A stretch of 64,000 bases of DNA from a virus (Duplodnaviria > Heunggongvirae > Uroviricota > Caudoviricetes), in IMG/VR virus record IMGVR_UViG_3300028422_001686; one strand, written 5' to 3'. The notes under the pieces are model-generated. The model was not told the origin of the DNA and did no database searches. It was given only the letters and a program-made list of their open reading frames with translations. A program made the position numbers and the translations under genes. This document shows positions 16,234-60,356 of the stretch, piece by piece (position 1 is the first letter of the stretch; each line of letters begins with the position of its first letter).

Positions 16234-16271
16234 TTTTAATAATAATATTTTAATACATTATGGAGGACGAC

Positions 16272-17948
16272 ATGTCTTATCGCTATTCTTCTTTAATTAA
16301 AGAAACCCCACAAACTAGTGCAATTCCTGGTAAACAAATGGTTAAGAACAATGCAGGTGGCTTTGTTTTTAAAATTGATAAATGGCAACGTCTTATGCGC
16401 TTCTTAATTCTTGGCGCAGAGAGTGGTACTTATTATGTAAATCAAAAAGCTTTTGCATTAGAAAATATTGATAGAGTCCTTGAGTGTATTAATGAAGATT
16501 CAAGAAAAGTTCTTACTACATTGCTTGATGTCTCTCTCAATGGAAGGGCCTTAAAGCAAGATGCAACAATATTTTTATTGGCTCTTGTTTCAAGTCAAAA
16601 TAAGGGGACTAAAGATGTTGAGCTTAATGAGCTAATTAAGTCGGCTGTTTTAAAAGTTTGTAGAACGCCTACAATGCTTTTTATGTACCTTAAGTTTGTT
16701 AGAGACTTAAGAGGGATGGGTCCTTCTGTAAGAAAATCTATTGCAAAATACTATACTGAAACAGACTTTAGTCGACTTGACCTGAGTGTTATTAAGTACC
16801 GTAATCGTGAAGGCTATACTCATAGAGATGCCTTGCGTTTATCTCATCCAAAGGCTAAAGATGAAAAACGTCAGCAGCTTTTTGCGTATCTTGTAGGAAA
16901 AGCAAATGCTCCTGAAGGTACAATGTGTGAGCTTTTTGAAAAGCTAAAAACAATTGATCTAAATACTAAAAAGGGTGTTAGTGAATTAATTGGCCTAATC
17001 ACTAAACATAATATTCCTCGGGAGCTATTGCCAACTGCAGCATTGAATAATGCAGATGTATGGAGAGCAATGCTTCCAGGAATGCCTATTATGGCATTAG
17101 TCAGAAACTTAGGTAAAATGTCTAGCCTTAATATTTTTGATAGTAATCTAAGAGATGAAACTATCATGGTTGTGAATAAGCTAGGAAATAAAGAGGTTAT
17201 TGAAAAATCCAGAATTCATCCTATGCAGCTTTATATTGCATCTAAGGTATATTCAGCAGGTAGAGGGGTCAAAGGATCTTTATCTTGGAGACCTAATGCT
17301 AAAATTAGATCAGCCCTAGATACTGCAATGACATTGGCTTTTAAAAATATTAAACCAACAGGAAAGAGATTTCTTATTGGTGCTGATATTTCCGGTTCTA
17401 TGACTTGTTCGGTCTTAGGTACTGATTTTGTTTCAGCATATGAAGCTTCAGCTTGTTTAGTTACAACTCTTGTTAGAACTGAAGAAAATGTTGATGCAGT
17501 TGCTTTTGGTAGTCCATCTAAAGGTGGGTATAGATCTTGGAATGAACCAAGAAACTATGGCTTTTCTATAGGGAATAATGGCGTTTCTGTTATGCCTGTA
17601 AACAAGAAAGAATCGGTAGACTCACTTGTTGGTCGTATGCAAAGCAACTACCATATGGGTAGTGGAACTGATTGTTCTCTTCCTATTAGTTATGCCTTAA
17701 ATAAAAAGATACCTGTTGATGTATTTGTCATTACTACTGACAATGAAACATGGGCCGGCAAGGAGCATGTATGTCAGATTTTAGACAAATATAGAAAAAC
17801 AATGGGTATTAATGCAAAATTATTTGTGATGGCAACATCATCTTCAGATTTTACTATTGCTGATCCTAATGATCCTGGAATGCTTGATTGCGCAGGATTT
17901 GATGCTTCAGTATTCAGTCTATTGTCGGAGTTTGCCTTACAAGAATAA
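16272..17948 (+). CDS. rsr: Ro60/Rsr ortholog (TROVE domain plus C-terminal vWA with a MIDAS site)
   Basis: The N-terminal NAGGFVFKIDKWQRLMRFLILGAESGTYYV matches the TROVE signature. A vWA MIDAS motif, FLIGADISGSMT, lies in the C-terminal half. The ATG at 16272 follows the RBS GGAGGA. Confidence 0.75.
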   Translation: MSYRYSSLIKETPQTSAIPGKQMVKNNAGGFVFKIDKWQRLMRFLILGAESGTYYVNQKAFALENIDRVLECINEDSRKVLTTLLDVSLNGRALKQDATIFLLALVSSQNKGTKDVELNELIKSAVLKVCRTPTMLFMYLKFVRDLRGMGPSVRKSIAKYYTETDFSRLDLSVIKYRNREGYTHRDALRLSHPKAKDEKRQQLFAYLVGKANAPEGTMCELFEKLKTIDLNTKKGVSELIGLITKHNIPRELLPTAALNNADVWRAMLPGMPIMALVRNLGKMSSLNIFDSNLRDETIMVVNKLGNKEVIEKSRIHPMQLYIASKVYSAGRGVKGSLSWRPNAKIRSALDTAMTLAFKNIKPTGKRFLIGADISGSMTCSVLGTDFVSAYEASACLVTTLVRTEENVDAVAFGSPSKGGYRSWNEPRNYGFSIGNNGVSVMPVNKKESVDSLVGRMQSNYHMGSGTDCSLPISYALNKKIPVDVFVITTDNETWAGKEHVCQILDKYRKTMGINAKLFVMATSSSDFTIADPNDPGMLDCAGFDASVFSLLSEFALQE

Positions 17949-17961
17949 ATGTGAGGTAGAC

Positions 17962-18441
17962 ATGAAAACTATTGATAGACTTGTTAAAGAAGTTCTTGAT
18001 GAACACAAGGAAGGTGAAAAGTTTTTTGAGAACTTGGATGAAAAAGTCAGAGATAAAAAGTGGTGCCAGGCACTATGGACCTCATATGTAAAATCTGGCT
18101 TACGTGACAATATGGATTTTATTGTTATGTCAGGTAGATTTGGTCAGCTATTCTATAACTTTCTAGTTTCTATTGGTGTGACTCGACCCATCTTTTTAGT
18201 TAGAGGTGGGTTAAGGCGCAATCCAGAACTGGATGACTTGAATAGCTTTGAGCTAAGTGGTACACGCTTTGTTTTCTTTGATGACAGCCTTTATGCTGGA
18301 AGAACAAGGGATGCAATTCATAGTCATTTAGTCGATCTGGGGAGTAAAGGAATCCAACATACATTTGTTATTTATGATGGATCTGAAGTAAAAGAAGAGT
18401 CTGTACACTCACTGTATAGGTACTGGGATAACGAGGAATAA
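17962..18441 (+). CDS. phosphoribosyltransferase-like protein (PRPP-binding-like motif)
   Basis: RFVFFDDSLYAGRTRD resembles the PRTase motif (hydrophobic)4-DD-x-x-T-G-x-T. RBS GAGGTAGA. Confidence 0.35.
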   Translation: MKTIDRLVKEVLDEHKEGEKFFENLDEKVRDKKWCQALWTSYVKSGLRDNMDFIVMSGRFGQLFYNFLVSIGVTRPIFLVRGGLRRNPELDDLNSFELSGTRFVFFDDSLYAGRTRDAIHSHLVDLGSKGIQHTFVIYDGSEVKEESVHSLYRYWDNEE

Positions 18442-18443
18442 TT

Positions 18444-19526
18444 ATGAGAAAATTAGCAAGTATTCAAGAAGTTTTGGCTGTTGAAGATATTGAGGGAGCT
18501 GACAGAATTCAACTTGCTTCTGTTTTAGGATGGAAGTGTATTGTTAAAAAAGGTGAATTTAAAGCTGGAGACTTAGCTGTATATATTGAAATTGATTCTA
18601 TTTTGCCTGAATGGCCAGAATTTGAATTTTTACGTGAAAAGAAATTCAGAATCAAAACATGGAAGTTAAATAAGTTTGGTGTTATTTCTCAAGGTATTTT
18701 ATTTCCTGTAGACATCTTGCCTGCTTATGACTCTAGAAATCCCCCAAAAGAAGATGACGATGTAACTAAGATTCTGGGTGTTACTAAATACGAACAACCT
18801 GATACTGTTATCATTGAACCAAAAAAGCACAAAGGTATTATTAAGTATCTTATGAAGTATAGTCTTTTTAGAAAGATGTATCTGTATTTACATGGAAATC
18901 GTAAAGCAGATTTTCCTTCTTTTATTGAAAAGACAGATGAAACAAGAGTTCAGAGCCTTAAAAAGATTTATAAAGTCTATAAAGAGAAAGGCTACTGGGT
19001 TCCTTCTGAAAAATTAGAAGGGTGTTCTGCTACATATTTTGCCAAGAAAGAAGGTAGAAAGATCATTTTTGGTGTTTGCAGTAGAAATCAATGGCTTAAA
19101 AAGAACGACGGATCCCATTATTGGAGCATCGCTATTAATTATGATCTTGAAAAGAAGCTTAAAGACTCTTTAAAAGAAATGAAAAATGTAGACTTGCTTG
19201 TTGTTCAAGGTGAAATTACTGGCCCAGGAATACAGGGAAATATTTATGGATTAGCTACTCATCAATTTAATATTTTTAATATTGTTATTGATAATAAAAG
19301 AGTTGCACTAAATAAGACATGCGCCTGGAAAGGCATTGATACAGTTCCTATTTTTCCAGCAAGAATTATTCCTGATGAAATTGATCAAATTATTGAATGG
19401 TCTAATGGAAAAAGTGAAATTAATCCTAATGTTATGAGAGAAGGTCTTGTGTTTAGGAACTTTGAAGACCCAAGTCTTTCATTTAAAGTCGTGTCTCCAG
19501 AGTATCTATTGAAAAATGGGAAATAA
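18444..19526 (+). CDS. ATP-dependent RNA ligase (Rnl-type nucleotidyltransferase with an N-terminal OB-like domain)
   Basis: Candidate nucleotidyltransferase motifs occur in the expected order: I (EKLEGCS, Kx[DE]G), Ia (VCSRNQ), III (LLVVQGEITG), IV (EGLVFRNFED) and V (SFKVVSPEYLLK). The N-terminal ~60-aa segment MRKLASIQEV...ADRIQL resembles the Rnl5/DraRnl N-domain. Confidence 0.5.
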   Translation: MRKLASIQEVLAVEDIEGADRIQLASVLGWKCIVKKGEFKAGDLAVYIEIDSILPEWPEFEFLREKKFRIKTWKLNKFGVISQGILFPVDILPAYDSRNPPKEDDDVTKILGVTKYEQPDTVIIEPKKHKGIIKYLMKYSLFRKMYLYLHGNRKADFPSFIEKTDETRVQSLKKIYKVYKEKGYWVPSEKLEGCSATYFAKKEGRKIIFGVCSRNQWLKKNDGSHYWSIAINYDLEKKLKDSLKEMKNVDLLVVQGEITGPGIQGNIYGLATHQFNIFNIVIDNKRVALNKTCAWKGIDTVPIFPARIIPDEIDQIIEWSNGKSEINPNVMREGLVFRNFEDPSLSFKVVSPEYLLKNGK

Positions 19527-23650: not shown

Positions 23651-23805
23651 TATGGGTTTCTTAAAAGACAATTACCATAAAATTGCTATAGGTTTTGCTT
23701 TAATGGTAGCCCTTTATTCTGGGGCCTTAATTTATTCTGCGTATAAATTCGGCTCTTTTATGGAAGGGCTGAATTCTTATTACATGAAGCATTCAGAGGT
23801 TGTTA

Positions 23806-24948
23806 ATGAAAAATTATATGATTGAACCAATTATAACAAGCTTATTAGATAATGATCTTTATAAGTTTACTATGCAGTACGCAAGTAGACATATAGGGCA
23901 TGCTTATATGCCACGTAGAGGCATTGTAAAGTATAAGCTGTACAATAGAAGCAAAAACAGTCTTTTAGGAATAAAAGATTTGCTGGAAGCTCAGATTGAT
24001 ATGTTATGTCAATTGAGATTTACAAATGAAGAGATTAACTATCTTCGTACATTAAATCTTTTTGATGAGGACTATCTGTGCAAGCTCAAAAATTTTACTT
24101 TTTTTCGTGAAAACATTATAGTTGATACACGTGAAGGTGACCTTGCTCTTGAGATAAAAGGTGCATGGTATAGTACAATTCTTTTAGAAGTACCATTACT
24201 GGCAATTATTAGTGAACTTGTTTCTCATAAAAGTTACGCTTCAAATCCAACCCCACAAATGGGTGCATTTGATGGAAGTTATTCTATTTATGATTTTGGA
24301 ACAAGAAGACGACATAGTTTTGCTCATCAAAAAGAAGTTTTAACTGGACTTAAAGGAATGCCAGCATTTAAGGGCACTTCTAACGTCTATTTTGCACGAT
24401 TGTTAAACCTTCCAGTGTTTGGATCTATGGCACATGAATGGATGCAATATCATCAAATTTTTGGTATAGAGCAATTCCAAGAATTTGCGCTTAACGGTTG
24501 GTCTGACACTTTTAAAGGAAAATGTGGGATAGCTTTAACTGACACTATTAACATGGATTCTTTTTTAAAAGAGTTTGATGGAAAACTAGCTCGTATTTAT
24601 GATGGCTGTCGCCATGATTCAGGCGATCCTTTTATTTGGGGAGAAAAACTACTGTCTCACTATATGGAATTAGGTATTGATCCAAGATTTAAAACGTTAG
24701 TTTTTTCTGATGGTTTAGACTTTAATACCATAAAGGATATTCAAGAAGCTTTTGCTCATAGAGTAAGAGTCTCATTTGGAATTGGAACTAAGCTAATGAA
24801 TAGATCCATTGACCCTCCATCGATTGTAATTAAAATGGTTTCTGCAGAAGGACAGCCTGTGGCGAAGATTTCTGATGAACCATTTAAGACAGTTTGTGAA
24901 GACTTGAATTACTTAAAAGAAGTAAAAGAAAGACTAAATGTTATTTAA
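23806..24948 (+). CDS. pncB: nicotinate phosphoribosyltransferase
   Basis: The N-terminus MIEPIITSLLDNDLYKFTMQ matches the NAPRTase signature (LLDTDLYKLTM). Length is ~380 aa. The ATG at 23806 follows GAGG. Confidence 0.7.
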   Translation: MKNYMIEPIITSLLDNDLYKFTMQYASRHIGHAYMPRRGIVKYKLYNRSKNSLLGIKDLLEAQIDMLCQLRFTNEEINYLRTLNLFDEDYLCKLKNFTFFRENIIVDTREGDLALEIKGAWYSTILLEVPLLAIISELVSHKSYASNPTPQMGAFDGSYSIYDFGTRRRHSFAHQKEVLTGLKGMPAFKGTSNVYFARLLNLPVFGSMAHEWMQYHQIFGIEQFQEFALNGWSDTFKGKCGIALTDTINMDSFLKEFDGKLARIYDGCRHDSGDPFIWGEKLLSHYMELGIDPRFKTLVFSDGLDFNTIKDIQEAFAHRVRVSFGIGTKLMNRSIDPPSIVIKMVSAEGQPVAKISDEPFKTVCEDLNYLKEVKERLNVI

Positions 24949-37304: not shown

Positions 37305-37733
37305 ATGGACACTAATATGTTTGTATATGAAGAGCTAAAGTCATTAAAACCAAGTGATGACAATCCGGTAGTATTGGAGAGAATAAAAAAACTTGGTGAC
37401 CCTAAAGATATAATCATTTTTTACTCTTCAAACATGTCTCAGTTTGGAGATATTGTTGGTTTTGATCTTGATAACTCTTGGATTAACTTAGCAAGAAGTG
37501 ATTTAAAACTATACAGAGTAAGAAATGACACTACTGTTGAGATGAGAATGTATGGGTGGTTAGCTAGAGATACAGAGTCCCAAACATGGGAATTTCTTCT
37601 TGAGTCTACGGACAATATTAAAGATCTAGAAGATACTTATGGAGACATAAATGATAGATATGTTAGGGTTCCAGAGAAAGACGAAGTCCTTACTGTCGAT
37701 ATGAATAAACAATATAAAGTTGAGTTTGAATAA
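37305..37733 (+). CDS. hypothetical protein (paralogous domain to the 36205 gene)
   Basis: YEELKSLKPSDDNPVVLERIKK matches the 36205 protein. Confidence 0.45.
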   Translation: MDTNMFVYEELKSLKPSDDNPVVLERIKKLGDPKDIIIFYSSNMSQFGDIVGFDLDNSWINLARSDLKLYRVRNDTTVEMRMYGWLARDTESQTWEFLLESTDNIKDLEDTYGDINDRYVRVPEKDEVLTVDMNKQYKVEFE

Positions 37734-38881
37734 TGAATAATGAATCAGTAAATAGTAAATATGGTGTTTATACCATAAAAGAGTCAGATGATGTAAAAGT
37801 TTTTATTTCAGAAAACTATAAGTATCATTTAGATAAAAATAATGGCCATTTTATAAGAACAGGAAAAACTCTAGCAGATGACCCTTCTATGAGTGTTTTC
37901 GGGCCTGAAATTGCAGATATTGAAATTTCAACAATTTGTCATGGGATTCCGCCTGTAGGTATGGATAAACCTGTGCCATGTAAATTTTGTTATAAATCAA
38001 ATAGTGGTCGTGGCGAAAATATGAGCCTCGACACTTTCAAGCAGATTTTTCATAAATTTCCAAGGTCATTGACTCAGATTGCTTTTGGTATTGGCGATAT
38101 TGACTCTAATCCTGATCTTTGGAATATTATGCGTTATTGCAGGGATAATAACTATCAGTTTATTGTCCCTAACGTAACTGTAAATGGATATAATTTAAAA
38201 GATGAATATGTTCAAAACCTAAAAGAGCTGTGTGGCGCGGTAGCTGTGTCTAGATATAAAAACTATGACGTATGCTATGACGCAGTTAAAAAGCTTACTG
38301 ATGCGGGAATGGATCAAGTAAATATTCATATGCTTGTATCAGAAGAGACATTTGAAGACTGTTTACAAGTCGTTAAAGATAAAGCGAGTGACCCTAGATT
38401 AGAAAAGCTTAATGCTATTGTCTTTTTGTCTTTAAAGCCAGTAGGAAAGACTAATACTTATAAGAGCTTAGATTCTAAGAGGTATCGTGAAATCATCGAT
38501 CTTGCTTTGGATTTGAAAGTAGGTATTGGCTTTGATTCTTGTTCTGCACCTAAGTTTTTAAAGGCAGTAGAAGACTGTGAAGCATTTGAAGCCTATAAAG
38601 TCTTAGCTGAGCCTTGTGAATCATTTTCTTTCTCTATCTATGTTAATCAGAGAGGAGAAGTTACTCCCTGTTCATTTTTAGAACACAGTGACAAATACAA
38701 GCCCATTAATCTGCTAGAGGTTAATGACTTTATGGATGAGGTTTGGCATTCTGATTTAGCCAATACTTTTAGAAGCCATTTGGCCGAAACAGAGTCAAAG
38801 TGCTCTATGGATTGTCGAATGTGTCCAGCATTTGATATTTATGGGCCAGAGCTATATAAGAAGGCTAATGATGTCGAATAA
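37733..38881 (+). CDS. putative radical-SAM-like enzyme with a non-canonical Cys motif
   Basis: ISTICHGIPPVGMDKPVPCKFCY gives a CX14CX2C spacing of the kind seen in QueE-type radical-SAM enzymes. A C-terminal Cys cluster CSMDCRMCP is present. This assignment is tentative. Confidence 0.3.
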   Translation: MNNESVNSKYGVYTIKESDDVKVFISENYKYHLDKNNGHFIRTGKTLADDPSMSVFGPEIADIEISTICHGIPPVGMDKPVPCKFCYKSNSGRGENMSLDTFKQIFHKFPRSLTQIAFGIGDIDSNPDLWNIMRYCRDNNYQFIVPNVTVNGYNLKDEYVQNLKELCGAVAVSRYKNYDVCYDAVKKLTDAGMDQVNIHMLVSEETFEDCLQVVKDKASDPRLEKLNAIVFLSLKPVGKTNTYKSLDSKRYREIIDLALDLKVGIGFDSCSAPKFLKAVEDCEAFEAYKVLAEPCESFSFSIYVNQRGEVTPCSFLEHSDKYKPINLLEVNDFMDEVWHSDLANTFRSHLAETESKCSMDCRMCPAFDIYGPELYKKANDVE

Positions 38882-39785: not shown

Positions 39786-40036
39786 GGCTATAGTGCACCA
39801 CCTTTTTAAAGGAGATTTTTATGGAAAATATTACGGTAAAAAGATATAAAAATCCTAAAAAAGTTGGATGGAAAGGTTTTATTGAACCTAAGGATGGTTC
39901 TTGGATTGCGTTTATTCGGTTAGATGGGGTGCCTGTTTTTTATCTTAAAAGAGATAGCTCAGGTAGGGTTTTAGACTAGATTTGTGTGGTGCACTGACTG
40001 TGTGGATGGCACAGTCTTTTTTTTAAGGAAAGCTTT

Positions 40037-40613: not shown

Positions 40614-41042
40614 ATGAAAATAAGAAATGGTTTTGTTAGCAATTCGAGTTCAAGTTCTTTTCTTGTTATAGGAGAAGAAAATCTAAGAAAACTTGGGGCT
40701 GAATATGTTAGGTTAACCCCCAATCAAGCAAAAGTTGCAATAGAGGATTATTTAGAAGGTTATTCTTGGAGAAAAAATGACAAGAACTTCTTTAATGATT
40801 GTAATATTAATGATATTTATTTAACTGAATTTATTAGCGATTGCTCAGACACCTATGACAAGGTTAATGATTTAGATGAAGCTGTTCATTGGGAAGAAGG
40901 TGGTCATGGTTCACCATATGACCATGATGATTATATCTCTTTAAACGGCCTTCCTGTTGATAGCTATGATTGTGTTCACTTTCCTAAATATCTTCAAGAT
41001 AAAGTCATTGAAATGGAGTATAAACTGCAAAAGGAAAGTTAA
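40614..41042 (+). CDS. MK[IV]RxGFVSNSSSSSF-family protein (paralog 1)
   Basis: N-terminus MKIRNGFVSNSSSSSFLVIG. Confidence 0.5.
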   Translation: MKIRNGFVSNSSSSSFLVIGEENLRKLGAEYVRLTPNQAKVAIEDYLEGYSWRKNDKNFFNDCNINDIYLTEFISDCSDTYDKVNDLDEAVHWEEGGHGSPYDHDDYISLNGLPVDSYDCVHFPKYLQDKVIEMEYKLQKES

Positions 41043-41314
41043 TGAAAATTAGAAATGGTTTTGTTTCAAACTCAAGTAGTTCTAGCTTTATGATACCAAG
41101 GATTTTTGTTTCTAGATATCAGTTAGAGCAAATAGAGAACCATATTGAAGTAGCTGAAAGCTTAGATATGTATCCAGATATTTCTGATGCTTGGCATATT
41201 GATAGTGACGACTATAAAGTAGAGGGTTGGACATCAATGGACAATTTTGATATGCATAAATTTTTAAACTTAATAGGCGTTCCTGCAGAAGCAGTTAAAT
41301 GGGAGTATGAATGA
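41042..41314 (+). CDS. MK[IV]RxGFVSNSSSSSF-family protein (paralog 2)
   Basis: N-terminus MKIRNGFVSNSSSSSFMIPR. Confidence 0.5.
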   Translation: MKIRNGFVSNSSSSSFMIPRIFVSRYQLEQIENHIEVAESLDMYPDISDAWHIDSDDYKVEGWTSMDNFDMHKFLNLIGVPAEAVKWEYE

Positions 41315-41799
41315 AAGTAAGAAAAGGCTTTGTAAGCAATAGTAGCAGTTCATCTTTTATTATTGGCATTGGGAAAGTAAAAGATATCCAAAAATTTAGA
41401 GGGTGGATAAAAGATAATTCCATAAAAGAGAATAATTGGAATGGCCTTCAAGTAAAGTCTACAACTGAAGTTTTAGAAACTAACTTTAATTATTCTAATG
41501 GATATCGTTTAAGAGATATGAAAGAACTTGTAACTGAAGGATGTGTTAATTCTGAGCCAGAAGTCAGCACCCCATTTGATCCGTCTAAAGAAGAGTATTA
41601 CTGTATTGTAAATATTGGAAATGATGAAGGTGATTGTGCTTTTGCAGATCCCAATAATGGCTTTTGGGCTGAACCTGACTATGATCAAGTAGATGAAAAT
41701 TGGTTTGAGGGCGAACAAAAAGCTATTTTAGATATGCTTATGGATGGTCAATTATTAGCAAAAGGTAATTGGCAGTTTGGTGCCGATAGGAACGGTTAA
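41311..41799 (+). CDS. MK[IV]RxGFVSNSSSSSF-family protein (paralog 3)
   Basis: N-terminus MKVRKGFVSNSSSSSFIIGIG. Confidence 0.5.
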   Translation: MKVRKGFVSNSSSSSFIIGIGKVKDIQKFRGWIKDNSIKENNWNGLQVKSTTEVLETNFNYSNGYRLRDMKELVTEGCVNSEPEVSTPFDPSKEEYYCIVNIGNDEGDCAFADPNNGFWAEPDYDQVDENWFEGEQKAILDMLMDGQLLAKGNWQFGADRNG

Positions 41800-41800
41800 T

Positions 41801-41980
41801 ATGGAAGATTTAATGTACAAACTTTTATTGGATAGAATAGACGTTTTGGTAGTCGAAAATGCGTTAATGGACTACAGAACGATTGTTAAAAATAGCATGA
41901 CTCTAACTAGAGAAGAAAAAGAAGTTTTATTGTTTAGGTTGAATCGTGTTATTGATAGGCTTAAAGCAGAAAATAATTAA
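41801..41980 (+). CDS. hypothetical protein
   Basis: ATG at 41801. Confidence 0.35.
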   Translation: MEDLMYKLLLDRIDVLVVENALMDYRTIVKNSMTLTREEKEVLLFRLNRVIDRLKAENN

Positions 41981-42134
41981 GGAGTAGTTATGCCCATTTT
42001 TATAAAAGCTTTAATTGCCCTATTGTTAGTTCATGTTTTATGCGTTTTTATTATTTCAATTAAAAAATTTGATAAAACGGCAAAAAAAAGGACTAAAAAA
42101 GGAAACTTTAAAAGATTTCTTTTTGGAGAATAAG

Positions 42135-42443
42135 ATGAAGATTCGACTAAGTAAGGAGTATTGGAATTTCTGTAAAAGTTCATGGACAATTAAGTGTCGT
42201 AATTGTGAAACAAAACTCTCTTTTACTTCTCATGAAATTGCAGATCTTAATAATAGGTTCTATATCTGTCCTGTCTGTAAAAACTCAGTTCTTATTCGTT
42301 TTGAAGAAACTATTCATAACACTTATCTTAAGCTGATAAAAATGAGAAAAGCGAAGTGGATTAAATGGTATAAAAAGCAAAAAAATAAAAATAATTTTTT
42401 TATTAACTTAAAGGATGCTTTTATTGACTGGTTAAATAGCTAA
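42135..42443 (+). CDS. Zn-ribbon protein
   Basis: CRNCETK...CPVCKNS motif. ATG at 42135. Confidence 0.4.
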   Translation: MKIRLSKEYWNFCKSSWTIKCRNCETKLSFTSHEIADLNNRFYICPVCKNSVLIRFEETIHNTYLKLIKMRKAKWIKWYKKQKNKNNFFINLKDAFIDWLNS

Positions 42444-42452
42444 GAGGTTATT

Positions 42453-42968
42453 ATGTCTAATGTCTTTACAGAGAGGTTTTTAGCTAGAATAAAAGGGTCT
42501 AAATTTGAAGACTTAATTCTTAAATATCCAGAACTATATGGTGATCCAGACCCAGAGGGTGGCTGTAAATATGCTGTTCAAAGATACGGCATTCAAACCC
42601 CCATAGGATGGAAGAAAGTTATTGAGGATTTTTCTCAAGAACTATCTACTTATATTAAAGAAAACCCTGTCAAAGACTTCTGTGTTCATCAGGTTAAGAG
42701 CAAGTTCGGCTCTTTGTGTATTTATTTAAGTTATTATGATGATGCTATTAGAAGTATGATAGATAAGGCGGAAGATAAAGCTTCTAATCATTGTCCAGAC
42801 TGCGGTAGTACAAGAAGGTTTAAAGAAAATCTTGGTGGTGGATACTGGTGTTATGCTTGTGTAGATTGTGCGGAGGAAGAAGATGGAAAAACCTTGTGGA
42901 CTATTGCCCCTGACAGAGATAGAAGTGAAATTAGACCAATGGGCGAGGCACTTAGAGAGTCAAAATAA
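42453..42968 (+). CDS. hypothetical Cys-rich protein
   Basis: CPDCGS...CYACVDC motif. Confidence 0.45.
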   Translation: MSNVFTERFLARIKGSKFEDLILKYPELYGDPDPEGGCKYAVQRYGIQTPIGWKKVIEDFSQELSTYIKENPVKDFCVHQVKSKFGSLCIYLSYYDDAIRSMIDKAEDKASNHCPDCGSTRRFKENLGGGYWCYACVDCAEEEDGKTLWTIAPDRDRSEIRPMGEALRESK

Positions 42969-42969
42969 A

Positions 42970-43122
42970 ATGTTATTAGATGCCATTTATAGTGCGAGAA
43001 AGATTAATGGATGTAAGGATAATGAGTGTAACGATAAATATCACAGAATCTCTGATCCTTGGACAGAGTATGATTGCCCTTTATGCGAAGTGACCGCCAA
43101 AATAAAAAGGACTACTAAATGA
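42970..43122 (+). CDS. hypothetical small Cys protein
   Basis: ATG at 42970. Confidence 0.3.
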   Translation: MLLDAIYSARKINGCKDNECNDKYHRISDPWTEYDCPLCEVTAKIKRTTK

Positions 43123-43592
43123 AAATTAGAGAAGGATTTGTTTCAAATTCAAGTTCAAGTAGCTTTGTAGTTATAGGAACTTCTGGAGTAAAACAAGAGA
43201 TTAATTTAGAGGAAGATAGTACATGGTATATTATTGGTGAGCAAGGCGAAACAGAGTTTGGCTGGGGTCCTTATAAAATTAAGGACATTCATAGCAGAAT
43301 TAATTTTGCCTATATTCAAGCTACAGCGATAGAGCATCAAGGGTGGCAAGATATGCTAGAAGAAGTTTTAAGAGAGAATCTTAACCTTCGTATTGATTGC
43401 TGTATCACAAGTGATTGGTCTAAGTCAGCTTCATCTAATTCAAGTAAATATGTTAAAGAGTATGGTTATATTGACCACCAATCTTCTGCCACGGAGGGAG
43501 AGAATATTGAGATCTTTGATTCAAAAGAAAATTTATATAATTTTATTTTTGATAAAGATTCATATATTCAATTAGATCACGATAATCATTAG
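43119..43592 (+). CDS. MK[IV]RxGFVSNSSSSSF-family protein (paralog 4)
   Basis: N-terminus MKIREGFVSNSSSSSFVVIG. Confidence 0.5.
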   Translation: MKIREGFVSNSSSSSFVVIGTSGVKQEINLEEDSTWYIIGEQGETEFGWGPYKIKDIHSRINFAYIQATAIEHQGWQDMLEEVLRENLNLRIDCCITSDWSKSASSNSSKYVKEYGYIDHQSSATEGENIEIFDSKENLYNFIFDKDSYIQLDHDNH

Positions 43593-43600
43593 GAGATATT

Positions 43601-44182
43601 ATGAAAGTAAGGTCTGGCTTTGTCTCAAATTCAAGTTCAGCAAGTTTTATCGTTGAAGTTAAGACCCCAACCCGGGATGATATGAAAAAGCTTTGCTATG
43701 CTTTATATGACAATATCCCTTGTTTTTCGGATGATGGATGTAAAGATCTACTAGAAAAAAGGCTTAATTTTTACGAGACATATAAGAAGCCAAAAGATGA
43801 TGCCCCTGATAATGTAAAAAGGTCCTACCAAAGAGAGATTGATCATATACAAAAGGAGCTAGACTATTTAAGGAACTATGTAAGAGAAGAATACAAGTTT
43901 AGTAATGAAAAGTTAGCAATTGAGAATAATAAAATCATCTCTATAAGAGAAAATAAACATAAAGAAAAAGTTGTGGAGATTGCAGTAGATGCATTGCACT
44001 GGAATTTTTCTTTGGATACAATTAATGGCATTAATTACACTGTGATTGATGCAGGTGGACCTATTATTTATAATGACTGGCATGATGTTAGGGTTAGAAA
44101 AAACTATATGGAGCTAATAGCTTTCTTAAAGTTTTATAATTATGACATAAATATAAGGGTTTCTGGAGATTGGAGTTTATAA
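43601..44182 (+). CDS. MK[IV]RxGFVSNSSSSSF-family protein (paralog 5)
   Basis: N-terminus MKVRSGFVSNSSSASFIVEV. Confidence 0.5.
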   Translation: MKVRSGFVSNSSSASFIVEVKTPTRDDMKKLCYALYDNIPCFSDDGCKDLLEKRLNFYETYKKPKDDAPDNVKRSYQREIDHIQKELDYLRNYVREEYKFSNEKLAIENNKIISIRENKHKEKVVEIAVDALHWNFSLDTINGINYTVIDAGGPIIYNDWHDVRVRKNYMELIAFLKFYNYDINIRVSGDWSL

Positions 44183-44481: not shown

Positions 44482-44719
44482 ATCAAGTTACAAGGCTCAA
44501 GTTGCAGCTATGAGATATCTAGCTATAAAAAAGCCTAAAGAATACTATATGGAGTTTAAAAAAACAGATGCTTTTCTTAAAATGCAGGAGAGAAGAAATC
44601 TTTCTTGTTTTGTTCTTTATGAAAAAAGAAAAGAGTATTATGGGTCAATTATAATTACAGAATATGACCCATTCCATATAGTCTATTTAGCGGATAAGGA
44701 GTACGAAGGTGCAAAATAA
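44474..44719 (+). CDS. hypothetical protein
   Basis: ATG at 44474. Confidence 0.35.
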   Translation: MCRSSYKAQVAAMRYLAIKKPKEYYMEFKKTDAFLKMQERRNLSCFVLYEKRKEYYGSIIITEYDPFHIVYLADKEYEGAK

Positions 44720-45602
44720 CATTACTGTTTTTCATCACAATGACCCAGATGGTTATTGTGCAAAGTTTTGGTTTCACTTCTTTCATTTTATGGAACCTTA
44801 TTGTGCAAAAGTAGTAAATGTGTCTTATTTTGAGTATGCTTATGGTTCAATTGAAAATATTGAATTAATAAAGGATAATACTGTTTATTTTCTTGATTGT
44901 TCACCTGCCAATATAGCTGATGTGGAGAGTTTGAAAGCGCAAGGAAATAAGATCATTATTATTGACCATCATGCTACAGCTTATGACCGATACAAAGAAG
45001 ATTCAGAGATTGAGCTATACTATGATGTAAAACATTCTGGATGTGAATTAACAAGGCTTTATTTTCAAAACAAATACACTGATGGCGAAGCTCTTTATCC
45101 AACACTTTTTTCTAAGCTCATAGAAGATTGGGATATTTGGAAATTTGAATTAGACAACACAGAAGAATTTATCTTTGGATTACAGTCTCAAGACATTAAA
45201 GATATGAAAGTGTGGGAAGAGCTACTTTATGAAGGGACAGATGAAATAAGCAAGTATATATCTATCGGAAAGCACTTAATTGCTTTTAGAAAGAATATGG
45301 CTGAAATTATTATTAAAAACACTGGTCAAGAAATTTATTTTCATGGTTTTAGTTGTTATGCGATTAATAATTGTCTTCCTTCATCAAAATGGTTTCTAGA
45401 TAAAGCTAAAGAGTATGATTGTATATTGAACTGGGCTATTCAATCTGATGGAAAAGTGAAGATTTCTCTGTACAGTGAATTTCCAGAGAAAGTTCAGGCT
45501 GGCAAGCTTTTAGAAAAATACTATGGTGGCGGTGGTCATGCTGGTGCTGCTGGTGCCATAATTGAAAGAGACAGATTCTTTAAAAATATATTTGGTTGGT
45601 AG
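44709..45602 (+). CDS. DHH-family phosphoesterase (NrnA/RecJ-like, DHH plus DHHA1)
   Basis: Three conserved motifs are present: VFHHNDPDGYC (motif I), IIIIDHHAT (DHH) and GGGGHAGAAGA (DHHA1 GGGH). Confidence 0.6.
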   Translation: MQNNITVFHHNDPDGYCAKFWFHFFHFMEPYCAKVVNVSYFEYAYGSIENIELIKDNTVYFLDCSPANIADVESLKAQGNKIIIIDHHATAYDRYKEDSEIELYYDVKHSGCELTRLYFQNKYTDGEALYPTLFSKLIEDWDIWKFELDNTEEFIFGLQSQDIKDMKVWEELLYEGTDEISKYISIGKHLIAFRKNMAEIIIKNTGQEIYFHGFSCYAINNCLPSSKWFLDKAKEYDCILNWAIQSDGKVKISLYSEFPEKVQAGKLLEKYYGGGGHAGAAGAIIERDRFFKNIFGW

Positions 45603-46670: not shown

Positions 46671-46922
46671 ATGGATATTTTAATGAACCATAATATAGCA
46701 TACCCTTGCTATGTTTTAATTAAAGAAGAGGAAAACACTCTTATAGCAAATAGCGATGGTGTTGGTAAAGTTGCCTTACATCATCCAGATTCCTTTTTAA
46801 AGAAGGGGATGAAGGTTTACTTTAATAATTTAAAAAAAAGTTGTGTTGTCATAAATGGTGAATCATTTTTTGTGTTAAAGCAAGAAGACATCTATTTATA
46901 CGAAGAGGCTGGACATGAGTAA
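46671..46922 (+). CDS. putative co-chaperonin (GroES-like)
   Basis: 83 aa, directly upstream of and overlapping the GroEL-like gene. The segment VLIKEEENTLIANSDGVGKVALHHPD fits a GroES-type beta layout. The assignment rests on position and size. Confidence 0.3.
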   Translation: MDILMNHNIAYPCYVLIKEEENTLIANSDGVGKVALHHPDSFLKKGMKVYFNNLKKSCVVINGESFFVLKQEDIYLYEEAGHE

Positions 46923-48603
46923 GAAAAATGTAAGAACCGCTGAAACAAAAAGTGTTGTATCTCAGGGGCTATGTCTTCTAGAAGATATTGTCTGTGGAAC
47001 AATGGGGCCTGGTGGACGAAATGTTATTCTTGAAAATTCATCTGGCGCACCAGTGATTACAAAAGATGGTGTAACTGTTGCACAATCAGTACCTGACCTT
47101 GAAGACAATGAGTTGAATTTAATTGTTAGAATCATTAAAGAGTCAGCTGAAAAAACAAATAGAGAAGCTGGTGATGGAACTACTACTAGTATTTGTTTAA
47201 CACATGCAATTTATAATGCTGGTGTGGACATTATTGAGTCAAACAAAATAAAAAATGTTAATAAGCTAAAGAAAGAAATCAAGGATGGTGTTGATCTAAT
47301 TATTCAGAGTATTGATAAATACTTTAAAGTCGACATCGCAAACTTGCCTGATGAAGAAAAGAAAAAGTATCTTTATAGCATTGCAAATATCTCTTTAAAC
47401 GGAGATAAAAAGTATGCTTCATTAATTTCAGATGTAGTAGCAAAAGCTGGACTAACCTCAATGATTGCAGTTGAGGACGGTAAAGGGTACACAGATGAGT
47501 TAATTAAGATTGAAGGGATGCAGTTTAATAAAGGTTGGGTTTCACCTTACTTTAAACAGACTGAACAACAAAAAGAGATTTCATTAGATAATCCATATAT
47601 TTTTATGACAACTTTTGATCTCACAAGTACTGGGCAGTTGGGCCTTTTAGAAAAAGCACTTAACCCATTAATTGCTGGTGGCAAACAACTTTTAATCATT
47701 GCTCCAAATGTGAGTGGTGGACTTCTTAATAGTCTGATTGCAAACAATAAACAAAAGAATTTAGTAAACTGTGCTGTATTTGCTCCTTATTATGGGAACG
47801 TAAGAAAAGAGTTTATGCAAGATTTGGCAATTAGTACAGGTGCTACAATTATTGATCAAGCTGAAGGACACTCTCTTTCTAAGGTTGAAGTTAGCCATTT
47901 TGGTAAATGTGAAAGGGCAATTGTAACTGCTACTGGAACGTCAATTATTGGTGGAGCTGGAGATACTTCAAAGGTTAAAGCTAGAATTAACTTCTTAAAA
48001 GAGGAAGCTAAAAAAGTTAACCCCCATAATGACTTAGATAAGGTTCACGAAAGATTGGCTAAAATTGAAGGTGGAGCTTATGTTATACAGCTTGCTAATC
48101 AATCGTATATTGAAGGGTTAGAGCTTAAGCATAGAATTGAGGATGCTGTAAATGCATGTAAAGGTGCTCTTGAGGGTGGTATTGTTGCAGGTGGAGGAGC
48201 TACTTTGTTCGCCGCAGCTAAAACATCATTAGATTGTTCAATTCCTGGTCACCTTATTTTATCTAAAGCTTGTGAAGCCCCGATGGAAAAGATACTCTAT
48301 AATATTGGTGTTGATTTTTCAGATAGAAATGAGTTGTTACAATTCTTTTTAGATAAGCGCATTAGGTCATGGGAAAAAGAAAAAGAGTCTAAGCCTTTTT
48401 CAAGTACTTATACAATTTCCGAAAAGAACGATAAAGGTGTTAAGTTAAATGATGACTGTTTTGCTACAGGTGTTGTAGATCCAGCAAAAGTAACTAAACA
48501 TGCTCTTTCTAATGCAGCTTCAGTTTCAGCTACTTTATTAACTACTAATGGTATTATTTCCTCTATTCCTGAGGTAAATCCAATGCCATTTTCAATGTAT
48601 TAG
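46915..48603 (+). CDS. groL: GroEL-like chaperonin (Cpn60)
   Basis: The N-terminal LLEDIVCGTMGPGGRNVILENSSGAPVITKDGVTVAQSV matches the GroEL signature TLGPKGRNVVL...ITKDGVSVA. Length is 562 aa and the C-terminus ends in MY. Confidence 0.75.
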   Translation: MSKKNVRTAETKSVVSQGLCLLEDIVCGTMGPGGRNVILENSSGAPVITKDGVTVAQSVPDLEDNELNLIVRIIKESAEKTNREAGDGTTTSICLTHAIYNAGVDIIESNKIKNVNKLKKEIKDGVDLIIQSIDKYFKVDIANLPDEEKKKYLYSIANISLNGDKKYASLISDVVAKAGLTSMIAVEDGKGYTDELIKIEGMQFNKGWVSPYFKQTEQQKEISLDNPYIFMTTFDLTSTGQLGLLEKALNPLIAGGKQLLIIAPNVSGGLLNSLIANNKQKNLVNCAVFAPYYGNVRKEFMQDLAISTGATIIDQAEGHSLSKVEVSHFGKCERAIVTATGTSIIGGAGDTSKVKARINFLKEEAKKVNPHNDLDKVHERLAKIEGGAYVIQLANQSYIEGLELKHRIEDAVNACKGALEGGIVAGGGATLFAAAKTSLDCSIPGHLILSKACEAPMEKILYNIGVDFSDRNELLQFFLDKRIRSWEKEKESKPFSSTYTISEKNDKGVKLNDDCFATGVVDPAKVTKHALSNAASVSATLLTTNGIISSIPEVNPMPFSMY

Positions 48604-55956: not shown

Positions 55957-56535
55957 ATGTCATATATAAGGCCTTTAGTTTTTGAAGACCCTTTAGAGTC
56001 TGAGACAAGAAATGATATTTCTATCCTAGAAAATCTTGGTGATGAATCATTTCTTTATGATATTTTTTATGACAGTAGGATTGGCGGGGTATGTCATCAC
56101 TATGCCTTTAATGGATTTAATGTTGGAATCTATTTTAGATCTAATGGAGTTATATGGACAAATGCAGTTTGTTTTTTTGATAGAAATTATTATTATCTAG
56201 GAATGAATGCGGATGGGACACTGAATACTTCACCAGTTAGTCGTTATGGAATACCATCAAGATTACATCTGACTTTACTTGTAGATGGAGATCCAGTAGA
56301 GTTTTTTCAAAATCAAAACTGTACTGTTCACTTCTTGCCTGGATCCTATAATTTAGATTTTTTAAAAAATTATACAGAAGAAACTGACCTAGACCTTGAA
56401 GAAGAGGATAGAGTTTCAGCAGAAAAGAAACTTCAATCATCTCTCTTGGCTTATTTTTTAAATATAGCTGAATATTTTGGTGGAGTTATCGATGGGCAAG
56501 ATGTATCGGATTCAGACAACCTCACAGAGTTTTAA
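55957..56535 (+). CDS. hypothetical protein between the E1-like gene and the RT
   Basis: ATG at 55957 preceded by AAGGTGGAG. About 192 aa. Its end overlaps the RT start. Confidence 0.45.
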   Translation: MSYIRPLVFEDPLESETRNDISILENLGDESFLYDIFYDSRIGGVCHHYAFNGFNVGIYFRSNGVIWTNAVCFFDRNYYYLGMNADGTLNTSPVSRYGIPSRLHLTLLVDGDPVEFFQNQNCTVHFLPGSYNLDFLKNYTEETDLDLEEEDRVSAEKKLQSSLLAYFLNIAEYFGGVIDGQDVSDSDNLTEF

Positions 56536-57367
56536 TAATTGTTTTTATATTAAAAGTACTGTTTTAAAAAAGAATGGTAAAAATAGAGTTATCTATGCCC
56601 CTTCTGATAAATTAAAAGAGTATCAAAAAGAAATTTCTAACATTCTTGAAAGTGGTTTTTCTGACATCTTAAATAGTAGTCATATAATGGGATTTGTTAA
56701 ACAAAAATCTATTGTCGATAATGCAACTAAGCATTTAGGTAAAGATTGGGTCATTAATATCGATATTAAAGATTTTTTTCCTAATATAAAAGGTCAGTAT
56801 GTTTATGATCTTATCTCTAAGAGGTCTATTATCTTTTCAGACTTTATATCTAAGTATAATAGCAGCTTGATAGATGTAGTAAGACTTTTAACATTAAAGG
56901 ACAAATTAATTCAGGGAAGCCCAGCTAGTCCTATAGTGGCAAATTTAATCGGTGCTGCGATGATTGACAATAAGGTTAAAGACTTTTTAGATTGCTATGC
57001 GCTTGATGATTTAGATTATACTCGTTATGCGGATGATCTTACAATCTCTTTCAATTCTGAGTTGAAAAAGCATGAACTAAAAGATATAATACACTCTTTA
57101 AAAAAAAGTTTAGACCCTTTTCAGTTCACAAAGAAAAAGACGATTATAAGTTCTAGATACGATAGACAAGAGGTGACTGGTATTACAGTAAATAATACTA
57201 GATGCAATCTTGGAAGAGAAAAAAGAAATTCTTTAAGAGGTTGGATTCATTCGGTTATTCAGAGTGGTAGATCAATTAAAGATGATCAAAGATTAATGGG
57301 ACACTTGTCTTATTTAAGATATGTTAATCCCGAAAGTTATAATAGATTAATAAAGAAATACAGTTAA
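56492..57367 (+). CDS. reverse transcriptase, retron-type (RT domain only)
   Basis: RT motifs occur in order: RVIYAPSDKLKEYQK (1), DIKDFFPNI (2/A), LIQGSPASPIVANL (4/B'), YTRYADDLTISF (5/C, YADD) and RQEVTGITVNN (the VTG motif typical of retron RTs). There is no maturase or endonuclease domain. Confidence 0.65.
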   Translation: MGKMYRIQTTSQSFNNCFYIKSTVLKKNGKNRVIYAPSDKLKEYQKEISNILESGFSDILNSSHIMGFVKQKSIVDNATKHLGKDWVINIDIKDFFPNIKGQYVYDLISKRSIIFSDFISKYNSSLIDVVRLLTLKDKLIQGSPASPIVANLIGAAMIDNKVKDFLDCYALDDLDYTRYADDLTISFNSELKKHELKDIIHSLKKSLDPFQFTKKKTIISSRYDRQEVTGITVNNTRCNLGREKRNSLRGWIHSVIQSGRSIKDDQRLMGHLSYLRYVNPESYNRLIKKYS

Positions 57368-59419: not shown

Positions 59420-59725
59420 ATGGATTGGGACAATAAACTAGTTATGAAGCTAGGTTTGCCTGATCTAGTAGAGATTTTAGTTAAATTAAAAACTAAAGCT
59501 TTTCCAGCTAAGCTATTTCACAAAATTGATAATGGCCCATCCTCTACGTTGGAAGTTTCTGAAGGAAACAAAGCTGGAACTTATAGATGGTTCGTATCAA
59601 AAGACGGATCTTCTATGCCAATTTTCTTAGATGCAAAAGATATGTATCTAATTAGTGTATTACTTGAAAATGCTATTTCAGTAACTCAAGCTTGGGTTCC
59701 GGTAGCAAAGCCAAGGAATGCATAA
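59420..59725 (+). CDS. hypothetical protein
   Basis: Internal ATG (MDWDNK...) of the 59273 ORF. The start is uncertain. Confidence 0.35.
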   Translation: MDWDNKLVMKLGLPDLVEILVKLKTKAFPAKLFHKIDNGPSSTLEVSEGNKAGTYRWFVSKDGSSMPIFLDAKDMYLISVLLENAISVTQAWVPVAKPRNA

Positions 59726-59741
59726 AATGAAAGGAGAACAA

Positions 59742-60356
59742 ATGGAAGAGATTGCTGCGGCTGCGGAAGGAATGTTGCCTGCAAACTACCTACAAGGGTT
59801 TGACTTGTTTGGTGGTGGAACAGAGACAAAAACACGAAGCCTTATTGTTACTGGTGAGGTTGGAGAGTCTTTGGTGTCTAGCATAACTAAGAATTTATTA
59901 TCTCTTAGTGCTGAAGACCCTGAGATTCCAATTACTATGTACATCAACACCTATGGTGGATCTGCTTATGACATGTTTGCGATTTATGATGTAATGAATT
60001 TTGTAGAAACTCCAATTTATACAGTTGGATATGGTAAGGTAATGTCTGCCGGAGTTCTCCTTTTAGCTGCTGGAGAGCCAGGCCATAGATTTTTAACCCC
60101 CAATGCTAGTGTAATGATACACAGAATGAAGGGTGGAGTTTATGGTGGTGTCGCAGATTGGGAGTCAGAAAAAGAACATTTTGCTGACTTAGAAAAAAGA
60201 ATGGCCGCTCTCTTAAAAAGTCATTCTAAGCTTACTCAAGCGCAACTTAAAAGCTATTTAGATAATCAAAACATTTATTTAAATGCTAAAGATGCTAAAA
60301 AGTATGGTATTGTTGACCACGTTAAAGGTACAATGCCAAAGATCCTTAAAGGATAA
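59742..60356 (+). CDS. ClpP-like serine protease (S14 fold), possible prohead protease
   Basis: YINTYGGSAYDMFAIYDVMNFVETPIYTVGYGKVMSAGVLLLAAGEPGHRFLTPNASVMIHR aligns with the ClpP core (INSPGG...GxAASMG...R...P...MIHQ), including the active-site Ser. RBS AAAGGAG. Confidence 0.6.
   Translation: MEEIAAAAEGMLPANYLQGFDLFGGGTETKTRSLIVTGEVGESLVSSITKNLLSLSAEDPEIPITMYINTYGGSAYDMFAIYDVMNFVETPIYTVGYGKVMSAGVLLLAAGEPGHRFLTPNASVMIHRMKGGVYGGVADWESEKEHFADLEKRMAALLKSHSKLTQAQLKSYLDNQNIYLNAKDAKKYGIVDHVKGTMPKILKG

Follow-up and report, generated by a model that had tools for sequence, protein, structure and literature searches.

The stretch analysed here, called the window throughout, comprises 64,000 nucleotides (nt) of a virus of the class Caudoviricetes (IMG/VR record IMGVR_UViG_3300028422_001686). 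On its + strand lie five open reading frames (ORFs) whose products share the N-terminus MK[IV]R[NKES]GFVSNSSS[SA]SF, followed by two hydrophobic residues, and, upstream of them, a gene for a radical S-adenosylmethionine (rSAM) enzyme with a SPASM domain. We refer to the shared N-terminus as the tag, to the remainder of each protein as its body, and to the tagged genes together as the array. The features concerned, with lengths in amino acids (aa) and scores against a hidden Markov model (HMM) of the tag, are as follows.

37733-38881, + strand: Radical-SAM and SPASM enzyme, predicted maturase for the tagged proteins; 382 aa; identified with Pfam and by 49% identity to array-adjacent enzymes.
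40614-41042, + strand: tagged protein A; 142 aa from its ATG; tag codons 1-18 at 40614-40667; tag HMM 40.1 bits; body cluster 6.
41042-41314, + strand: tagged protein B; 90 aa; tag at 41042-41095; tag HMM 38.9 bits; largest body class (alignment A4).
41311-41799, + strand: tagged protein C; 162 aa; tag at 41311-41364; tag HMM 36.9 bits; alignment A3.
43119-43592, + strand: tagged protein D; 157 aa; tag at 43119-43172; tag HMM 39.6 bits; body cluster 4 (13 members).
43601-44182, + strand: tagged protein E; 193 aa; tag at 43601-43654, with Ala at position 14; tag HMM 35.3 bits.

For protein A the ORF list opens at an upstream TTG (40599), and the length of 142 aa is counted from the ATG at 40614.

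A sequence-only reading of the window had proposed that these five genes combine a common N-terminal motif with divergent bodies, and three methods bear this out. A six-frame regular-expression search locates exactly five copies of the motif in the 64 kb, all of them at ORF starts; the tag HMM recovers the same five at 35-40 bits, the next best stretch reaching 7 bits; and with the tag removed the five bodies show no similarity in pairwise BLASTP (best E 0.006). Thirteen of the first 16 residues are invariant among the five proteins. Within the 16-codon tag, pairs of copies differ by 4-8 synonymous codons, including switches between AGY and TCN serines, and nucleotide identity is 56-81% where amino acid identity is 81-100%. 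These synonymous differences indicate that the conserved object is a peptide under selection and not a DNA repeat or the trace of a recent duplication, both of which we reject on the codon evidence. The tandem, start/stop-overlapped arrangement of the genes would suit an artefact of duplication or recombination, or an element acting on the DNA or RNA level in ribosome loading or regulation; against the synonymous differences in every pair, a tag peptide encoded at GC contents from 0.26 to 0.64 and its recurrence in 21,524 protein clusters (see below), we give such an origin practically no credence.

The array is packed in the manner of an operon, as the overlaps of start and stop codons indicate: the gene at 41042 overlaps the preceding ORF by 1 nt, and those at 41311 and 43119 do so by 4 nt each. 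Three untagged Cys-rich, zinc-ribbon-like ORFs (136, 171 and 84 aa, at 42033-43122) split the array, standing after its third tagged gene and before its fourth; their PaaD and CoiA zinc-ribbon matches are weak, and in the ORF clustering of 131 loci described below they are not conserved in other loci holding tag or enzyme. Searches of Pfam, NCBIfam, PADLOC and PDB sequences returned no match for any of the five tagged proteins. The first 18-37 profile positions of PHROG 7397 (function unknown) match all five, with E from 8e-5 to 9e-4 and over the tag part only; this PHROG, which carries no annotation, represents one body class among at least 132. The body class of protein C bears the motifs GNDEGD and DYD and a C-terminal GAGRNG, and the body of protein E belongs to a small cluster whose other members are P0014 and P0069.

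The motif, which the sequence-only reading had suggested looking for in other phages, proved to be widespread. A word-indexed profile search returned 537 proteins, all of 70-210 aa, with no Pfam domain and with MKIRNGFVSNSSS[SA]SF at the extreme N-terminus. An exhaustive HMMER search, in which only residues 1-32 of the five proteins of the window were run against 1.84 billion cluster representatives (50%-identity clusters), returned 21,524 representatives at E ≤ 0.001; the strict motif is present in all 141 of the top newly listed matches, and 130 of these have Gly at residue 6. In 334 catalogued sequences M1, K2, R4, S15 and F16, none of which was part of the search pattern, are 98-99% conserved; positions 3, 5 and 14 are variable, hydrophobic residues fill positions 17-18, and the information content drops sharply at position 19. 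IMG/VR contains 463 occurrences of the pattern GFVSNSSS. Fifty loci drawn from that database, mostly on phage contigs of 30-550 kb, carry 1-13 tagged ORFs each per 20 kb, co-oriented and mostly in tandem, and the tag stands at the ORF start in 229 of 244 cases; over the whole analysis, arrays comprise 1-14 genes. The few database proteins with two tag matches are two complete tagged units fused head to tail; in those numbered P0123-P0129 the internal tag opens with its own Met, and these may be tandem genes read through, whether from recoded stop codons or from errors of assembly or gene calling.

The bodies behind this constant segment are extraordinarily diverse. With further loci added, the catalogue holds 489 unique tagged proteins of 61-279 aa, which fall into 132 BLAST clusters, 95 of them singletons. 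Between the 14 largest body clusters the best hhalign probability is 16.8%, and when the full-length subfamily profiles A3 and A4 are compared with each other the alignment covers the first 30 columns only. The subfamily alignments contain no residue common to all bodies. Among ten large representatives scanned, one contains a Pfam domain, the STAS-like DUF4325. In the searchable literature we came upon no account of the tag, of the family or of the phage module.

The enzyme upstream of the array matches the Pfam families Radical_SAM (PF04055; 36.2 bits, cut-off 29.5) and SPASM (PF13186; 27.5 bits, cut-off 21.5) and belongs to PHROG 7293, function unknown. Its TIGR04085 score lies below the cut-off, so that the C-terminal domain may be a full SPASM or a twitch domain. 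The gene ends 1.7 kb upstream of the start of the array. The residues C69, C83 and C86 (Cx13CxxC-YK) and C270, C295, C313 and C364 are invariant in 31 array-linked homologs, the spacer between the first two cluster cysteines varying from 3 to 13 residues among homologs; many residues of an N-terminal extension of about 65 aa, with N30, F33, G38, W43, G44, D50 and P51 among its conserved positions, are likewise invariant in these 31. A profile of the enzyme family compared with the PDB gave as best matches the rSAM alcohol dehydrogenase BtrN and the peptide thioether synthase SkfB, both marginal at E ~0.002. No anSME match was obtained in NCBIfam (E<0.1) or in the PDB profile search, and no FxsB match in NCBIfam.

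An rSAM gene was first noticed beside the arrays of loci L007, L020 and L025. All counts of co-occurrence that follow refer to ±10 kb around the seeds. A homolog of the enzyme is present in 36 of the 51 tag-seeded loci, the window included; in 27 of these 36 its place is upstream of the array, and five loci have gaps of 2-14 nt. Of the tag loci without it, several are cut off by a contig end, or the enzyme gene lies at another place on their contig (L032/L085, L019/L102). Conversely, 189 relatives were retrieved from IMG/VR when the enzyme alignment served as query; among the best 80 of the loci so seeded, 71 contain tagged ORFs. Sixty-two of these loci have no sequence in common with those seeded by the tag, and 53 of the 62 (85%) hold 1-13 tagged ORFs. 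With the tag matching about 463 times and the enzyme about 200 times among 2.9 million contigs, co-occurrence by chance is negligible. Clustering of the + strand ORFs of 131 loci yielded two recurrent families, the tagged proteins (120 loci) and the rSAM enzyme (117 loci), with the next family reaching 13 loci; the same clustering linked no protease, transporter or separate recognition protein to the arrays. For phosphorylation or glycosylation of the Ser run, which the sequence-only reading had considered, no linked kinase or glycosyltransferase was seen either.

Outside the viral records, the tag was seen among genome assemblies in metagenome-assembled genomes (MAGs) only. Matches in low-GC MAGs look like binned phage contigs. 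Seven high-GC contigs (0.51-0.64; one measures 1.47 Mb) from Acidobacteriota and Verrucomicrobiota are organized differently: each encodes one tagged protein of 137 aa, followed within ~12 nt by an rSAM enzyme about 30% identical to those of the phages. In six of the seven the pair is preceded by an ORF of about 125 aa, itself preceded by a STAND (signal transduction ATPase with numerous domains) NTPase of 940-960 aa with SMEK_N and NACHT domains, which PADLOC classes as Avs2-like. The order STAND NTPase, ORF125, tagged protein, rSAM enzyme is seen at L133:6787-11502, where two tyrosine-recombinase genes flank the operon, with equivalents in L136 and L138-L141. The bacterial tagged proteins are 43-75% identical overall, their tag is unchanged (MKIR[SAT]GFVSNSSSTSFLI), and their body is weakly related to one phage body class; the NTPase and ORF125 were not found in the phage loci. 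The four-gene bacterial operon is a candidate for an undescribed NLR-like defence system with an rSAM-modified effector.

That the pair of tag and enzyme is conserved across this evolutionary distance and range of GC contents is the strongest argument for a direct functional coupling between them. We consider it quite likely that the tag works together with the rSAM enzyme, as its substrate or its obligate partner. The more definite proposition, that the 16-18 residue N-terminus M-K-[IV]-R-x-G-F-V-S-N-S-S-S-x-S-F-h-h is the recognition tag, and most likely the modification site too, for the enzyme at 37733-38881, such that one maturase would serve many substrates, is in our judgement probably correct. 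Among the functions that the sequence-only reading had listed for the motif, a modification-recognition tag is thus the one favoured by the evidence, since the rSAM/SPASM gene co-occurs with it in both directions of search and in the bacterial operons. The genomic linkage would fit equally well a model in which the tag docks on the enzyme without being modified, and the variable bodies bring third-party targets (host or rival-phage proteins, nucleic acids, metabolites) to it, as F-box adaptors do for an E3 ligase; the extreme diversity of bodies behind a constant tag, with no residue common to all, speaks in its favour. The near-invariance of 13 tag positions, including small polar Ser and Asn residues, suits a substrate in an active site better than a docking strand, the model is without precedent, and known rSAM-SPASM enzymes act on the peptide or protein that they bind (PMC10114670), so that we consider such an adaptor function unlikely.

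Models computed with AlphaFold2 from the subfamily alignments (predicted local distance difference test, pLDDT, 89.8 for the C-type and 84.5 for the B-type) suggest how the tag may be presented. The first ten residues are extended and of low confidence in both models (mean pLDDT 49 in the C-type, 45 in the B-type), residues 1-5 of the C-type and 1-10 of the B-type falling below 50; the first predicted strand of the body spans residues about 13-23 in the former and about 14-19 in the latter. On these models the tag begins as a flexible, exposed tail at the N-terminus (residues 1-12) and continues into strand beta1 (residues 13-18). The two models differ in size and in the order of their secondary-structure elements, and in Foldseek searches neither has a significant match in PDB or BFVD, an insignificant ferredoxin-like or PII-like resemblance being seen with both. 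The possibility that the motif is simply the first strand of a domain shared by all five proteins is borne out in one minor respect, in that the end of the motif is the first strand in both models, and fails in the other, because the bodies share no domain at a detectable level. We reject a shared globular domain on the BLAST and hhalign comparisons, though a minimal alpha/beta core common to the bodies may still exist. These unrelated bodies, together with the low-confidence tail formed by residues 1-10, uphold the notion of a shared leader or tag.

The predicted strand bears on another possibility, that of an autonomous motif, by which the tag would be a self-associating or partner-binding strand (for instance a zipper of Ser and Asn residues, or a degron recognized by ClpXP of the host or ClpP of the phage) and would be linked with the rSAM gene through co-regulation only. 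Its second half is indeed a beta strand in both models, and a composition rich in Ser and Asn and flanked by Phe would be zipper-like. This account leaves unexplained why the rSAM gene, at enzyme identities of ~30-100% and in phages and bacteria alike, is the sole co-varying gene, and equally why the disordered residues 1-12 are invariant; we regard it as a distinctly unlikely one.

The sequence-only reading had also raised a capsid-targeting sequence, by which the proteins would be directed into the prohead, relieved of the tag by a prohead or ClpP-like protease and injected with the DNA. The window does encode the protease in question:

59718-60356: canonical ClpP (PF00574, 2e-44).

T4 internal proteins are a familiar example of tandem, rapidly diversifying small phage proteins with a short constant N-terminus, in their case a capsid-targeting sequence, and the likeness to tandem hypervariable small proteins with a constant N-terminus is plain. 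The tag differs from theirs in having no protease site, no link to structural genes and a second home in bacterial chromosomal operons. The ClpP is a bona fide one and not a prohead protease, is 15 kb distant and is no recurrent neighbour of arrays; positions 1-18 contain no acidic residue, hence no Glu, and no other recognisable protease site; the array sits among non-structural genes; and the bacterial STAND operons in which the same tag is found are chromosomal and have no capsid genes. With residues 13-18 built into the folded body as strand beta1, as the models have it, removal of the entire tag would not be feasible. We therefore hold removal of a capsid-targeting propeptide to be very unlikely. 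A secretion signal, a further suggestion of that reading, is also unlikely: the tag has no hydrophobic h-region, residues 9-15 being Ser or Asn with only 2-6 hydrophobic residues after them, which does not agree with a Sec or Tat signal peptide.

Several observations weigh against the tag being the substrate of the rSAM enzyme. The modification, its site and its chemistry are all predictions. The partner is absent within 10 kb in about 10 of 51 tag loci and in 9 of 62 enzyme loci. In the window itself, six small ORFs and the following feature separate enzyme and array.

39996-40016, + strand: terminator-like hairpin, an 8-bp stem followed by a T run; identified by consensus match only, and so an uncertain, possible boundary of a transcription unit.

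The enzyme falls in no characterised subfamily, its NCBIfam matches being generic only, and Pfam finds in it no PqqD-like recognition domain of the kind called RRE (recognition element of RiPPs, peptides that are made on the ribosome and modified after translation), a domain that occurs in many, not all, rSAM-SPASM maturases. A 39%-identical homolog is present in 172 cultured T4-like phages (Slopekvirus and relatives), and within 8 kb of the one in Klebsiella phage Miro (NC_041981.1, 91043-92197) there is no tagged gene, which implies that the enzyme family is broader than its association with the tag. The substrate of the homolog in the cultured T4-like phages may bear another motif. Part of the conservation may also be structural, as residues 13-18 are buried as strand beta1 in the models.

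The enzyme class is already known; what is new is the substrate family, the placing of the motif at the N-terminus of folded proteins, the arrays of phage genes and the use shared with STAND operons. rSAM-SPASM enzymes are standard maturases of ribosomal peptides, and among RiPPs one parallel is the prochlorosin type, in which multi-copy gene families encode many precursors with a conserved leader and a hypervariable core for one maturase. The tagged proteins share with these the use of one enzyme for many substrates and a conserved recognition segment ahead of a hypervariable remainder; they differ in that prochlorosins have a lanthipeptide synthetase, short cores and a leader of ~65 aa, where the phage system has an rSAM-SPASM enzyme, folded domains of 60-280 aa and a segment of 16-18 aa. 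A second parallel is found in AtsB and anSME, anaerobic sulfatase-maturating enzymes of the rSAM-SPASM class whose substrates are whole proteins and which abstract a hydrogen from Ser Cbeta to produce formylglycine (PMC10114670). Here too several full-length proteins are served by one enzyme, which acts at a short conserved motif close to their N-terminus, but the tag does not contain the motif (C/S)-x-(P/A)-x-R, and the phage substrates are small, unrelated, non-sulfatase proteins that are tagged at residue 1 and arrayed. A third concerns the cyclophane-forming enzymes XyeB, GrrB and FxsB (PMC10114670). For STAND/AP-ATPase conflict systems, Kaur et al. predicted a modification of FxSxx peptide effectors by rSAM-SPASM enzymes (PMC7159879). 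FxsA/FxsB (triceptide) systems resemble ours in joining such an enzyme to a substrate with an F-x-S-x-x string in NTPase-centred conflict operons, the bacterial version of the tag standing beside SMEK-NACHT. The motif of those systems forms the very C-terminal end of a processed peptide, and they include a peptidase, whereas in the phages it occupies residues 7-11 of folded proteins of 61-279 aa, with no peptidase linked.

From these parallels we infer that the enzyme binds and modifies the tail of the tag. It would hold the tail in its extended form, a 5'-deoxyadenosyl radical would abstract a hydrogen, and a modification would be installed within residues ~6-13. The tag contains an FxSxx string, F7-V8-S9-N10-S11, of which F7-V8-S9 is invariant and which is a match of the string alone. 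This string and the Ser run suggest two candidate chemistries: a three-residue cyclophane from Phe7 to Ser9, as made by FxsB-like enzymes, or oxidation of a Ser to formylglycine in the manner of AtsB and anSME, either of which would reduce the mass by 2 Da. Both are leads, and our confidence in any specific chemistry is low. More weakly, we infer that the tagged proteins may be diversifying effectors in phage-host conflict, in which the variable body would give target specificity and the modified tag a common function. A resemblance of the R-x-G-F segment to the glycyl-radical motif was considered and rejected: that motif is an R-V-x-G-[FWY] loop in the glycyl-radical domain, served by an activase without SPASM, whereas the tag has one residue fewer between R and G and is N-terminal on small bodies that are not glycyl-radical enzymes, and the enzyme here has SPASM. 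Ophion, a defence system with an rSAM enzyme, was likewise set aside as unrelated.

Some further observations concern the individual bodies. Residues 37-95 of protein A weakly resemble PHROG 17758 (E 0.0015), and its body gives tblastn matches with E of 0.05-0.4 to gp60 of phage SPO1, a gene of the SPO1 host-takeover module; this last is no more than a hint that the bodies may belong to proteins of the early, host-takeover type. By megablast the array region has no near relative in 50,697 deposited phage genomes, and four of the bodies gave no informative tblastn match in the same records; the low-complexity filter of BLAST masks the Ser run, so that cultured phages bearing the tag are not identifiable by those searches.

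The remaining identifiable genes of the window encode auxiliary or nucleic-acid enzymes, with no structural module; besides the ClpP gene at 59718-60356 they are represented by the following.

44709-45602, 46915-48603 and 23800-24948: genes among which are a DHH phosphoesterase, GroEL and a nicotinamide phosphoribosyltransferase-like protein.
56477-57367: polymerase- or reverse-transcriptase-like ORF (PHROG 2825, 2e-48; PHROG 1423 'reverse transcriptase', 5e-9).
16260-19526: 'RNA-binding protein' (PHROG 850, 562 aa), an ORF of 194 aa and an RNA ligase (PHROG 968).

The last group may be an RNA-repair module. A diversity-generating retroelement around the reverse-transcriptase-like gene was rejected, there being no template and variable repeats in 54-60 kb. 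The source contig (188 kb) resembles the marine T4-like genomes rich in Fe-S proteins and ClpP described in PMC5332604. A second multi-copy motif, CxxCxx[RK]FxC[FWY][TS], often C-terminal in small ORFs, was seen outside the window, with 130 matches in 11 loci (7-16 per 20-kb locus) that belong to one clade of tag-bearing phages: L007, L012, L013, L017, L036, L039, L063, L064, L068, L071 and L075 (for example L007:1862, 2815, 3225 and 5096). It is also present in the body of one tagged protein, and the ORFs with this motif may make up a second family of substrates, served by another Fe-S or rSAM enzyme.

The broadest reading of these results is of a very widespread protein-level analogue of RiPP biosynthesis, in which a phage rSAM/SPASM enzyme would put a new modification, a crosslink or an aldehyde, on the universal 16-residue tag of arrayed small effectors that are unrelated and diversify rapidly, and the same pair would be the effector module of bacterial SMEK-NACHT immune operons, with one tag chemistry on both sides. 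We advance this tentatively, as a possibility that falls somewhat short of an even chance. If the tag is the substrate of the rSAM enzyme, it would define a new post-translational modification system that acts on folded proteins and not on peptides, likely with a new radical-SAM chemistry, and a short, portable, enzyme-addressable N-terminal tag could serve protein engineering. More than 21,000 protein clusters without a Pfam family carry the tag, and its 16 residues would flag thousands of phage 'ORFans'. That phages and bacterial STAND/NLR-like operons both make use of the pair suggests a function in immunity or counter-immunity.

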